Shown: positions 40,315 through 43,352, counted from the first letter of the stretch. The stretch is DNA of 64,000 bases from Candidatus Methanomethylicia archaeon (GCA_029259155.1 JAPDJI010000009.1:1-64000); one strand, 5' to 3'. A program made the numbers and translations. Notes: generated from the letters alone by a model not told the origin.

Positions 40315-41553
40315 GTGTTGATTATGCGTGGTAAGGCCATTCACTATGGATGGATCATTGTAGCGTTGGGCTTCTTATCTGTACTGGGTGCTCATGGCTT
40401 CGGTAGGTTTGCTTATTCATTGGTATTGAGGGACATGAAGCTTTCCTTAGACCTTACTTATGCTCAAATGGGTGATATAGCTTCAGCCAATTTCATCGGC
40501 TATTTAGCGTTAGCCACGATAGGGGGTGCGTTGGCCAGTAAGTATGGTTCTAGGAGGGTGATATCGATATCTGCCATGGTTATGGGGGTGACCATGATTC
40601 TAACGGGTCTTTCTCGCAGCTACTTTGAGGTTCTTGTGCTACGTTTTCTAACTGGGCTGGGGAATGGTAGCACGTACCTCCCCTCTATGGCCTTGCCCTC
40701 CATTTGGTTCGCCTTGAAGTATCGAGGTAGAGCTACTGGTTATGTGTCAGCTGGTATAGGCGTGGGTTTTGCCTTGGCTGGTGTCTTAGTGCCTCCTATT
40801 CTGGCTCTATATGCTCCTGAAGGATGGAGATATGTATGGTTCTACCTCGGCTCAGCTTTAATAGCCATCTCTATCGTAGATTTGATTTTCCTTAGGAATA
40901 GACCTGAAGATTTGGGGCTTAAACCTGTAGGTTTTGAGGAGTCAACACTTAGCCCTTCGCCTTCCAGTAGTTCTTCGCTTAGGTGGGGACTTGTGTATAA
41001 ATCAAAGGAGGTATGGTTTGTGGGACTAGTTTATTTCATGTATGGTTTCTCCTATATCATTTACGTCACGTTCTTCGCAGCTTACCTTGAAGATGTCTTT
41101 GGATGGAGTAAGGCGCTTGCTAGCAGTTTATGGTTTATGGTTGGTATGCTTAGTATCTTTAGCGGAGTGATCTGGGGATGGGTGTCGGATGTTTTGGGTA
41201 GGAAGTATGGTATGTGCCTGGCCTACTTGGTCTTAGCCTCCTCCTACCTGCTCTTTGCTATAGCTCTACCTCCATATGGCCTCTACGTGTCTGCTTTAGT
41301 TTTTGGATTGACGGCTTGGAGTATACCTACGGTGGCGGTGGTGGCTGCAGCTGACTATGTGAGCTCTGAACTTAGATCGGCGGCTGCAGGGTTTGTTACG
41401 TTTTTCTTCGGTGTGGGGCAAGTGTTGGGTCCTAAGGTGGCTGGACACGTAATTGATGTGATCGGTTTTCCTCCAGCTTTCATCATAGCTACGCTAGCTT
41501 CCCTTGTAGGCGCGTTTGGCTCTCTCTTGTTAAAGAAGCCTCGTAAAGGGTAG
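40315..41553 (+). CDS. MFS transporter (YbfB/YjiJ-like)
   Basis: GFGRFAYS, SANFIGYL, GWVSDVLGRK, GVGQVLGP; about 12 TMs. Confidence 0.92.
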   Translation: MLIMRGKAIHYGWIIVALGFLSVLGAHGFGRFAYSLVLRDMKLSLDLTYAQMGDIASANFIGYLALATIGGALASKYGSRRVISISAMVMGVTMILTGLSRSYFEVLVLRFLTGLGNGSTYLPSMALPSIWFALKYRGRATGYVSAGIGVGFALAGVLVPPILALYAPEGWRYVWFYLGSALIAISIVDLIFLRNRPEDLGLKPVGFEESTLSPSPSSSSSLRWGLVYKSKEVWFVGLVYFMYGFSYIIYVTFFAAYLEDVFGWSKALASSLWFMVGMLSIFSGVIWGWVSDVLGRKYGMCLAYLVLASSYLLFAIALPPYGLYVSALVFGLTAWSIPTVAVVAAADYVSSELRSAAAGFVTFFFGVGQVLGPKVAGHVIDVIGFPPAFIIATLASLVGAFGSLLLKKPRKG

Positions 41554-41599
41554 GTGGACATGGTGGTTTTATGGGAATCGTGAGCTGAGATGGGGAGTG

Positions 41600-42077
41600 T
41601 TGGTTTTTTCTTCGAGGTAGGCTTAATGATAAGGCTTTAGTGAGCGGTATGCCTATGACGAGGCAAGCAAGGGCTTCACCTATGCCTACGCCTGCATAGG
41701 CTAGAATCCATGGTACACCGAAGAGCAACGGTAGGTATGAACTACAATTAAGGTCACTATGATCACTGGGTATGATGCAGCAAGGCATATGTTTCCTCGA
41801 CTTAGCTTCGCGCTCATGTAGGCGGATGTGAAGTTGGCGAGCGATCCAAACAGCATATCTATGACACTACCTGTAGTATAGGCGTGGGCCACGATGCATC
41901 CTAAAGCCAGTCCTATGGCGGCAGGTACCCCTGTGATCATAGCTGTTGGTAATAATGCATCGGAGACTCTAACCTGCATGGGGCCGTAGGCTAATGGTCA
42001 ACCAAGAAGTGCTTCAACTAGAGTTATGGAGGCGTAGATGGCGGTTAAACTTATTTTTTTGAGCTTGTTTTTACCAC
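41600..42077 (-). pseudogene. queT: QueT (7-deazaguanine precursor transporter) pseudogene
   Basis: PLAYGPMQVRVSDALLP..GLALGCIVAH..DMLFGSLA..GIGEAL; frameshift in the A7 run (42054-42060), in-frame TGA at 41998-42000, second frameshift near 41741; 3' end approximate. Confidence 0.85.
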
Positions 42078-42082
42078 TCCTG

Positions 42083-42156
42083 CTTCCTCCCAACACCGGG
42101 GTTTGTGTCATCGCGGAACGGGTGGGAGGGCCCACTCATCCGCTCGTGGTGAGGCT
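42083..42156 (-). ncRNA. Structured 5' leader of queT, SscA-like RNA (candidate riboswitch)
   Basis: GCCUCACC ACG AGCGG AUGA GUGGG CCCU CCCAC CCGUU CCGCG AUGA CAC AAACCCCG GUG UU GGGAGG: nested stems, two AUGA bulges, closing stem covering GGGAGG; TTTTATAT box at 42173-42180. Confidence 0.7.
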
Positions 42157-42263
42157 TCTTACCGCTCTAGTGATATAAAAGCTCAGGTTCAGGTCAAATA
42201 TGTATGGATCGAGGCTCATGGGGTCATCTGCTTCATGTTTTCGAGAGGTTTATAAAAAGAGGT

Positions 42264-43352
42264 TTATGGTGTGAGGAGTTTCTTGGTTAGTGCACCGCCG
42301 AGTGCTAGTGAAGCTAAAACTATGAACGGCCCTGTAATGTATAATGCAGCGGTCAAGGCGTATAGAGATGTCAAGTGTATAATTACTGCCGCTACAAGAG
42401 TCTCTATAAGCCATTTTATTTTGATAGGTAGTTTCAACCTTCTTCTTTTAGTTAGGGCGGCAGCGGCTATTAATGGCCAGCTGTAAGTTAAGCCTATGAG
42501 TACGCCAGCAGTTATGCCCGCCATGATTACGGCCAGCTCGCTATTGAAGGATAATATGCCGTAAACCTGTCTAGCTACTATGAGGTCTCCTATCAATGGG
42601 TAGAGCATTGCCTTAACGGTGTTCCTTAAAAGTTCATTTCCTCTTTCAGCGCTAGCTACATAGGGGCTCCAAGAGTAGTACCAAACGTTAAATACCTCCA
42701 TAAATCTTTGTCCACCAACGGTCTTCAGGACGTCCTCGTCCCTAAAGCTTCTCAGGAACTGTACTGGGCCTGCTAGCTCGCTTCCAAAGGCAGCTGTAGC
42801 TATGAGGCAGCCTCCTCCTTCACCGCCTGATGGAGCTGGGGTAGATACCTCTACGGTAAGAGAGCTGGTGGCCACGTTAGCAATGCTTTGGAAGTTTTCG
42901 TCGACGAGGGCTACGCTAACAACTTCAATATTCTTCGAGCCGCTTTGTGCCTCGCTATTTACTTGGAAGGTAAGGGTCAACAGCGTTCCTGTCGGTGTAG
43001 GAGGTGTGGTACTTCCACGCCTAGCTATGGCGTAAAGGATAGTTCCTGGGCTTTCAATGTCCTCTAAACCCACTACTGGGTCGTCTCCTAAGAGGTCACC
43101 TATTTGAGCATTGATTAACGTAAAGGCATCTTGATCGTAAGAGATGTTAATTTCACATGCACTTATACCATATCCATGAGGGTTAACCATTATGTTGACC
43201 TCAAATTGTTGACCTGGCTCAACTTGGATCGTTGAAGGCTCAAAGTACACTTCTACTGCCTGTGCTATTACTGAGCCAGCTAGGATTGTGGGTATTAGCA
43301 GTAGAGCTATGAACATTGAAAGCCTGATGGTTTTTGCCTTTAGCTTCTCCAA
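42264..43352 (-). CDS. Secreted/surface protein: signal peptide + cohesin domain + CFI-box-CTERM membrane anchor
   Basis: VEPGQQFEVNIMV..ISYDQ..GTLLTLTFQV (cohesin); GGGCLIATAAFGSELAGPVQFLRSFRD..FNVWYYSWSP. Confidence 0.82.
   Translation of the reverse strand: MEKLKAKTIRLSMFIALLLIPTILAGSVIAQAVEVYFEPSTIQVEPGQQFEVNIMVNPHGYGISACEINISYDQDAFTLINAQIGDLLGDDPVVGLEDIESPGTILYAIARRGSTTPPTPTGTLLTLTFQVNSEAQSGSKNIEVVSVALVDENFQSIANVATSSLTVEVSTPAPSGGEGGGCLIATAAFGSELAGPVQFLRSFRDEDVLKTVGGQRFMEVFNVWYYSWSPYVASAERGNELLRNTVKAMLYPLIGDLIVARQVYGILSFNSELAVIMAGITAGVLIGLTYSWPLIAAAALTKRRRLKLPIKIKWLIETLVAAVIIHLTSLYALTAALYITGPFIVLASLALGGALTKKLLTP

Follow-up and report, generated by a model that had tools for sequence, protein, structure and literature searches.

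PreQ1-II (the COG4708 RNA motif) is a riboswitch class of the Streptococcaceae and Lactobacillales in which the leader of queT (COG4708) folds into an H-type pseudoknot whose 3′ strand holds the SD. PreQ1-I is an H-type pseudoknot of about 34 nt with an A-rich tail, and SAM-II, SAM-V, guanidine-III and preQ1-III are likewise H-type pseudoknot riboswitches that sequester the SD. The riboswitch classes known from Archaea are very few, those for TPP and fluoride among them, and to our knowledge no published archaeal class senses a 7-deazaguanine. In PMC5372724, bacterial queT/qrtT and yhhQ genes are described downstream of preQ1 riboswitches, YhhQ is given a part in preQ0 transport, and preQ0 is the substrate of archaeal arcTGT in an established pathway. 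We found no description of an archaeal queT or yhhQ leader in the full-text literature outside subscription journals. Here we describe a leader family, motif A, that precedes archaeal queT genes and of which one copy stands in the window, by which we mean the whole 64,000-nt stretch analyzed (JAPDJI010000009.1:1-64000) from the genome of a Candidatus Methanomethylicia archaeon (GCA_029259155.1; 1.55 Mb in 47 contigs, 94% complete). Judging from sequence comparison, the window locus is probably a decaying copy or relic of an archaeal translational OFF riboswitch for a 7-deazaguanine, with preQ0 as the probable ligand.

All features of this locus lie on the minus strand. Upstream of the leader is a 362-aa cohesin-domain ORF (42264-43352; N-terminal cohesin E 1.7e-12), the C-terminal part of which is hydrophobic and has a weak DUF1761 match. 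The 188-nt spacer 3′ of the end of this ORF at 42264 contains TTTTATAT, a TATA box read from the sequence at 42180-42173, as had been noted in the sequence-only reading that preceded this analysis. The same reading had proposed a structured leader upstream of queT, and this was borne out by the motif A covariance model, which matches 42147-42080 (R1, 70.0 bits, E 2.5e-17; R2, 64.8 bits) and finds no second match in the genome; the queT downstream is broken. From 5′ to 3′, the match comprises the P1 5′ strand, AGCGG in the window and GGCGG in the family consensus (42140-42144); L1, AUGAGUGGG (42131-42139); the pseudoknot 5′ strand, CCUCCCACCC, which is also the anti-SD tract (42120-42129); L2 with its invariant GUU (42117-42119); the P1 3′ strand, CCGC followed by a G at the place of the family's partner of the first P1 base (42112-42116); L3, in which a linker that varies in sequence and length across the family, here AUGACAC, is followed by conserved AAA and CCCC (42098-42111); and the pseudoknot 3′ strand, GGUGUUGGGAGG (42086-42097), which includes the SD, GGGAGG (42086-42091). 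L2 was taken from the consensus line and the two pseudoknot strands from covariation. An alternative hairpin, P2, was recognized by pairing analysis and joins GUGG (42132-42135) to the CCAC of CCUCCCACCC.

Compared with the systems above, motif A is most readily set beside preQ1-II: both are queT 5′ leaders, both form an H-type pseudoknot with the SD in the 3′ strand, and translational repression by a 7-deazaguanine would be expected of both. However, their conserved nucleotides differ, no similarity to preQ1-II was found with Rfam at E<=10, motif A has no embedded hairpin in its 3′ tail, and among the matches listed it occurs just in archaeal records. Because archaea make archaeosine from preQ0, the ligand of motif A would likely be preQ0. 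With preQ1-I, motif A shares a 5-bp P1 and the order of its parts (P1 5′ strand, loop with a pseudoknot strand, P1 3′ strand, A-rich tail and SD-overlapping strand), but it is about twice as long, its bulged pseudoknot has 10-12 bp, it carries CCCC segments and a long invariant L1, GUGAGUGG, and it has no Rfam match. The ligand-stabilized pseudoknot or triplex that occludes the ribosome site in SAM-II, SAM-V, guanidine-III and preQ1-III is similar to the arrangement proposed here, while gene context and sequence are different and no Rfam 15 model of these classes matches. Motif A therefore looks like a new class that resembles preQ1-II and preQ1-I in its proposed working and stands outside their Rfam models. 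If ligand sensing is confirmed, this preQ0-type element of about 65 nt would give a family of well-studied ligands a new aptamer fold, and archaeal genetics would gain a small and possibly thermostable part for gene regulation.

The search of known RNA families was made at several thresholds. At the gathering score, Rfam 15 gave nothing in the whole 64-kb window. At E<=10, the region 41950-42350 gave just Yfr1 (E 2.2) and the C/D-box RNA sR32 (12.6 bits, where the gathering score is 40; E 0.57). SscA and preQ1-I/II/III were absent from that region, from eight related loci at E<=1 and from an intact motif A copy at E<=10, and the resemblance to SscA that had been suggested found no counterpart at either the gathering score or E<=10. 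SscA, which belongs to the Thermococcales/Methanococcales, and motif A are alike in being small structured archaeal RNAs, but motif A acts as a leader in cis and stands before a defined set of genes. Matches to sR32, Yfr1, microRNAs, eiav_FSE and msiK among the window, the related loci and clean copies of motif A and of the second leader described below were at chance level and were dismissed.

These searches also bear on the idea that the element is a trans-acting small RNA, whether SscA-like, of C/D-box type or bound by L7Ae; a trans-acting or L7Ae-bound role had been offered as an alternative in the sequence-only reading. What speaks for such an RNA is the sub-threshold sR32 match together with the two AUGA motifs in the window, which had been described as bulges. 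Among 130 distinct copies, however, two AUGA motifs occur in the window alone, where the first is made by a window-specific G-to-A change at 42139; RUGAUGA is found in none of the 130 and CUGA in six, and on these grounds a C/D-box sRNA and a K-turn or L7Ae-binding RNA were both rejected. Every copy, moreover, is fused to an SD and abuts a start codon, with one copy per genome. We consider a trans-acting role very improbable.

For a cis-acting fold the evidence comes from covariation. P1 is a G/C-rich helix, NGCGG:CCGCN′. Covariation is seen at its outermost pair, for which the 53 copies of the genome set have GC (41), AU (6), CG (3), GU (1) or UA (1), the A.G of the window being the sole non-pair. 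The AGCGG/CCGUU stem drawn earlier for the window gives way to this helix, since the family instead pairs GCGG with CCGC. In the pseudoknot, CCUCCCACCC pairs with GG.GU.GGGAGG, with two single-nucleotide bulges, and the SD is the distal part of the helix. The proposed pairing of the internal CCUCCC (42129-42124) with GGGAGG (42091-42086) was confirmed and covaries across the family; the other suggested SD partner, CCUCACC (42154-42148), lies at or before the putative transcript start and is not conserved. An ACAC/GUGU hairpin, also proposed, can form in 10 of 130 copies, and the GU of GUGU pairs instead with the AC of CCCACCC. In short, the suggestion of a 7-deazaguanine riboswitch candidate that masks the SD of queT stands in its comparative core, while several of the helices proposed for it do not.

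In the structure-fitted alignment of the genome set (A3), 97.3% of cells at paired positions are paired and 7 of 15 pairs have changed on both sides, a result equaled in 0 of 500 shuffles, whereas controls in which the structure was slid gave 43-65% paired; the covariation score was 0.231 against 0.04-0.06 for the slid controls. The metagenome copies (A4), likewise structure-fitted but kept out of model building, gave 97.6% paired cells, 6 of 15 pairs changed on both sides and again 0 of 500 shuffles as high, with slid controls at 43-61% and a score of 0.201 against 0.035-0.054. A structure-blind MAFFT alignment of the 130 distinct copies still had 95% of cells paired, and the column pairs with the highest mutual information (MI) and at least 96% canonical cells all fall within the P1 and pseudoknot model. 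A pair between linker column 45 and tail column 60 (MI 0.53) was rejected, as it is canonical in just 59%. Tails that do not hold an SD still pair with their partners (UUCCGAC:GUCGGAA, GCCUCC:GGGGGC and CCACC:GGUGG, and, by eye, CAUCUCC:GGAGAUG and CCCAUCC:GGGUGGG). A conserved and covarying secondary structure, as expected of a riboswitch, is thus found in A3, in A4, in the MAFFT alignment and in the MI scan, and covarying homologs do exist upstream of other archaeal queT genes, a check that the sequence-only reading had named. Some of this signal needs to be read with care. Part of the pseudoknot covariation is a change of register (CCUCCC:GGGAGG versus CCUCC:GGAGG), about 10 of the 77 metagenome copies lack the AC:GU pairs, and many pairs are uninformative because most positions are invariant. 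Little or no variation is seen in the segments GCGGGU, CCGUUCCGC and A.AAA.CCCG.G, but both pattern scans preset parts of the blocks GCGGGU, CCGUUCCGC and AAA.CCCG, so that invariance is overstated in the sets obtained by those scans.

Folding energies add little to this comparison. Single sequences folded no better than their shuffles (for the window, z -0.89 over 116 nt and +0.26 over 76 nt; over all copies folded, z +0.26 to -2.0), and with z-scores this weak the support for motif A is comparative, not thermodynamic. The pseudoknot is calculated at -9 to -20 kcal/mol at 37 °C and might form without ligand. When pseudoknots were disallowed, P1 and P2 formed in four of five copies and the pseudoknot helix in one of five, and the competition between the pseudoknot and the fold without it is close. 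The GUGGG/CCCAC stem of the sequence-only reading survives here in part: GUGG:CCAC can form in 96% of cells, but with one compensatory change, and its whole CCAC strand, four columns, is shared with the pseudoknot, so that the two compete. Motif A hence joins an expression platform to its fold, with the SD inside the covarying 3′ strand of the pseudoknot and P2 as the competing helix.

SD masking of this kind could also be the work of a ligand-independent attenuator or an RNA thermometer, in which the pseudoknot would simply lower queT translation or would open when hot. Masking of the SD is the sole function-like feature shown, the window's DNA is found in hydrothermal or sediment metagenomes, and the close competition between the two folds would suit such a device. 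On the other hand, about 30 invariant unpaired nucleotides would be needless for a thermometer, and thermometers are not confined to one pathway over two phyla, here queT, queC and queE. We regard this explanation as improbable.

Motif A is widespread in the class to which the window belongs. Of 62 genomes of this class searched with the covariance model, 22 have it; so do 27 of 151 in a phylum sample and 10 of 121 in a second phylum, to which a record titled Promethearchaeota had led. Genomes carry a single copy each, apart from one with two copies at contig ends. A pattern scan of genome_contigs yielded at least 20 true loci (46-83 bits) among 80 fetched from the matches listed, with 58 giving no model match and 2 a weak one; these true loci are all archaeal among the matches listed (16 from Bathyarchaeia/-ota, the others from Methanomethylicota, Nitrososphaerota, Promethearchaeota and records named 'archaeon'), but the matches of the scan were mostly chance ones in bacteria, and it is therefore silent on absence from bacteria or from other archaeal phyla. 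With a stricter pattern on metagenome contigs, 79 of 80 fetched loci were true motif A. Altogether, at least 130 distinct sequences come from two archaeal phyla and from metagenomes. Motif A spans Bathyarchaeia, Methanomethylicia and Asgard-labelled genomes; if ligand sensing is confirmed, translational control by riboswitches that mask the SD would be shown to operate in these uncultured lineages.

The genes behind the leader are highly uniform. QueT scores above the Pfam cut-off in 53 of 54 downstream ORFs at genome loci, and a local QueT HMM matches 75 of 79 downstream ORFs at metagenome loci. In 13 metagenome loci (L191, L204, L206, L216, L230, L234, L243, L252, L253, L258, L260, L262 and L266), the queT gene behind motif A is succeeded by queC, which starts after its end or overlaps it; by eye, queC also lies 3′ of queT in one complete genome, and at L250:1248-2411 a single 388-aa ORF has both QueT and QueC domains, either by fusion or by read-through. 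At two loci (L117 and L192), the ORF directly 3′ of motif A encodes a radical-SAM, QueE-like protein; the two proteins are 61% identical, and their NCBIfam matches (the best five for L117 and all five at E<=1e-10 for L192) are QueE models, all under the equivalog cut-offs. Motif A is thus linked to several non-homologous genes of one pathway (queT, queE-like and queT-queC) and, like preQ1 riboswitches, takes the 5′ leader position at genes for the transport or synthesis of queuosine precursors. If its role is confirmed, motif A would be a genomic marker of archaeosine-precursor salvage. The ORF behind motif A at L212:246-980 encodes a multi-pass membrane protein of 245 aa that matches no Pfam family and not the QueT HMM, and this may be another 7-deazaguanine transporter family. 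QueT ORFs at L053 (about 30 nt after the match) and at L221 and L259 have no in-frame ATG, GTG or TTG between the SD and the QueT body, which could reflect unusual start codons or assembly errors.

TATA-like hexamers begin 18-45 nt 5′ of P1 in 82 of 134 copies, with a peak at -29 to -36, compared with 10 of 133 in a control placed 100 nt further upstream. The start codon mostly lies 6-7 nt past the last paired base of the SD. Among the sequencing runs listed for the window's region, none was of RNA. We infer a transcript start a few nucleotides 5′ of P1, and a mechanism can be proposed in which P1 would close a loop with the invariant GGGUGAG, the C-rich tract and GUU, followed by a 3′ tail with the A-rich and CCCC segments and then GG.GU.GGGAGG. 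The C-rich tract and the tail would form the H-type pseudoknot, of which the distal 5-6 bp would be the SD. The proposed ligand would sit at the junction of P1 and the pseudoknot, among the conserved unpaired nucleotides of L1, L2 and L3, and once bound it would lock the pseudoknot and bar the ribosome, giving the OFF state. With the ligand absent, P2 would occupy part of the tract and leave the SD free, P1 and P2 together being the likely ON state. Conservation, the covariation of P1 and the pseudoknot, the gene context and the spacing of promoter and SD are observed, and we infer that a ligand binds, what it is and which way the switch works. The regulon, with transport (queT), synthesis of 7-carboxy-7-deazaguanine (CDG; queE) and preQ0 synthesis (queC), points to a 7-deazaguanine, and preQ0 is the best guess because the pathway ends with it and archaeal arcTGT takes it as substrate; queT-queC operons in genomes without queD and queE would suit CDG, preQ0 or another base alike.

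The anti-SD:SD helix could also serve a mechanism that depends on a protein or on temperature, and 9 of 26 QueT places in relatives, which have neither motif A nor the second leader described below, count against the riboswitch interpretation. In the protein-dependent version, the leader would be bound not by a small molecule but by a protein, either one that works in the archaeosine pathway or a regulator dedicated to this task; arcTGT, for instance, might act on a tRNA-like feature, possibly inserting preQ0 in the RNA, and so stabilize or open the pseudoknot that masks the SD. The very conserved unpaired segments would suit a protein site as much as a ligand pocket, an arcTGT gene is present in the window's genome, and so strong a pseudoknot may require a factor for its opening. 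Yet no regulator gene travels with the leader, the neighbors after queT being QueC or unrelated genes, with an AsnC-type HTH gene in two loci; AUGA or k-turn features are not conserved; and the same pathway genes carry two structurally different leaders, which is typical of riboswitch classes. We judge control by a protein unlikely. The two AsnC-type HTH genes (L190:77-580 and L203:2-223, both metagenome loci) are on the same strand as queT, 3′ of it.

The second leader, motif B, is about 105 nt long. It has a P1 hairpin and a CUCC:GGAG helix that encloses a hairpin of variable form, as well as the segment AAGGGAGAAAUCAACC and a hairpin in which an anti-SD strand pairs with the SD. In an alignment of 14 rows, of which two are weak matches, 91% of cells are paired and 19 of 28 pairs have changed on both sides, a result equaled in 0 of 500 shuffles, and no Rfam 15 model matches. 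Of the 62 genomes of the class, 11 have motif B, largely in families without motif A; in the phylum sample it was found in 3 of 151. The genes behind motif B are those for YhhQ (Vut_1) and QueC (4 genomes), Vut_1 (1), QueT-QueC (2) or QueT (5). Among 41 genomes, 24 have QueT genes, the window's genome included; the 260 nt upstream of 26 QueT places hold motif A in 11 cases (window included), motif B in 6 and neither in 9. The two leaders are alike in standing before genes of the same pathway, in masking the SD with an anti-SD strand and in several short elements; they differ in that motif B is longer, has a multi-stem fold and keeps its anti-SD:SD hairpin separate, and their distribution among families is nearly complementary. 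By eye, both contain GGCGGG(C)UGAG, GUU(A), CUCC:GGAG and an A-rich stretch with CC after it. As the order of these elements differs, the two may build a related binding core from permuted strands.

In the window's own genome, motif B lies on contig C22 (L313:1501-1604, the same as L308:735-850; see also L315 and L316-L324), ahead of an intact yhhQ-queC operon (L308:837-2241; Vut_1, 171 bits). This genome has arcTGT (L310, contig C6) and QueC, and no PTPS/QueD or QueE-like gene was found in the 94% of it that is estimated to be present. Possession of arcTGT and yhhQ-queC without QueD or QueE suggests salvage of a 7-deazaguanine precursor, either CDG or preQ0, and with the yhhQ-queC operon intact queT could decay. 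Two unrelated-looking leaders at two non-homologous transporters of one pathway form the pattern expected of riboswitch classes, and on balance we lean towards the view that archaea have at least two undescribed classes for a 7-deazaguanine, most likely preQ0, one a pseudoknot (motif A) and one multi-stemmed (motif B). If this is true, the two motifs would be the first 7-deazaguanine riboswitches described in Archaea, as classes so far archaeal-only among the records listed, and their regulons, queT-queC and yhhQ-queC in genomes where queD and queE were not found, would point to CDG or preQ0 salvage as a common archaeal lifestyle.

Whatever the family does, the window copy itself appears to be a relic. 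A GTG at 42077-42075, 8 nt after the SD, aligns with the TTG or ATG starts of the four closest queT orthologues, but its reading frame is not that of the QueT body and runs into a TAA after 8 codons. The queT remnant (PF06177, 41489-42075) also has an in-frame TGA at 41998-42000, where the closest orthologues have Gly, and a further frameshift near 41741, seen from two Pfam pieces in different frames (41701-41979, E 7e-14, profile positions 26-103; 41489-41788, E 4e-4, profile positions 108-140); in the whole-genome QueT profile search, positions 8-105 were read through one in-frame TGA. With the out-of-frame start, the TGA and the frameshift, this queT has at least three lesions, and no intact regulated gene stands behind the window's motif A. 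The leader had been called apparently intact in spite of the decayed ORF, and this holds for the TATA box, for 4 bp of P1, for both pseudoknot strands and for the SD. The copy belongs to the family by its model match and its pseudoknot; it deviates in two places, the outer P1 pair, which is broken, and position 42139, where the window has A (G9-to-A) and all 52 other distinct copies have G.

With fairly high confidence, we take the window element to be non-functional, which is compatible with a riboswitch function for the family. The lesions of queT, the unique G9-to-A change, the existence of the yhhQ-queC operon elsewhere in the genome and deviations in related strains all support this; the strains are represented by contigs from four other metagenome runs (X1-X4, aligned at >=90% likeness; X1 and X4 have a depth below 5). 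All four have the consensus G back at 42139 but deviate at other invariant positions: 42143 (G5 to A in X1, X2 and X4), 42100 (invariant C to U in X2, X3 and X4), 42114 (G36 to A in X3) and 42097 (G57 to U in X1). Within queT, X3 and X4 have GGA in place of the TGA at 42000, which X2 retains; X2 and X3 have one base more at 41741/41742; and X2, X3 and X4 have one base less in the A-run 42050-42056 (near 42054). The locus thus looks like a polymorphic, decaying relic in its lineage. Against this, the pseudoknot strands, SD and TATA box are intact in the window, its 70 bits lie within the 34-87 bits of 56 family matches to the same model, and the homopolymer and low-depth differences may stem from assembly errors. 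As a relic, the window copy would illustrate the fate of such an element after the death of its gene, in which the leader outlives the ORF and begins to lose its invariant positions. Run X3 also contains a 31-nt contig with a depth of about 360 that spans just the invariant core of the leader (window 42115-42143) and presumably derives from other, more abundant archaea with motif A in that sample.
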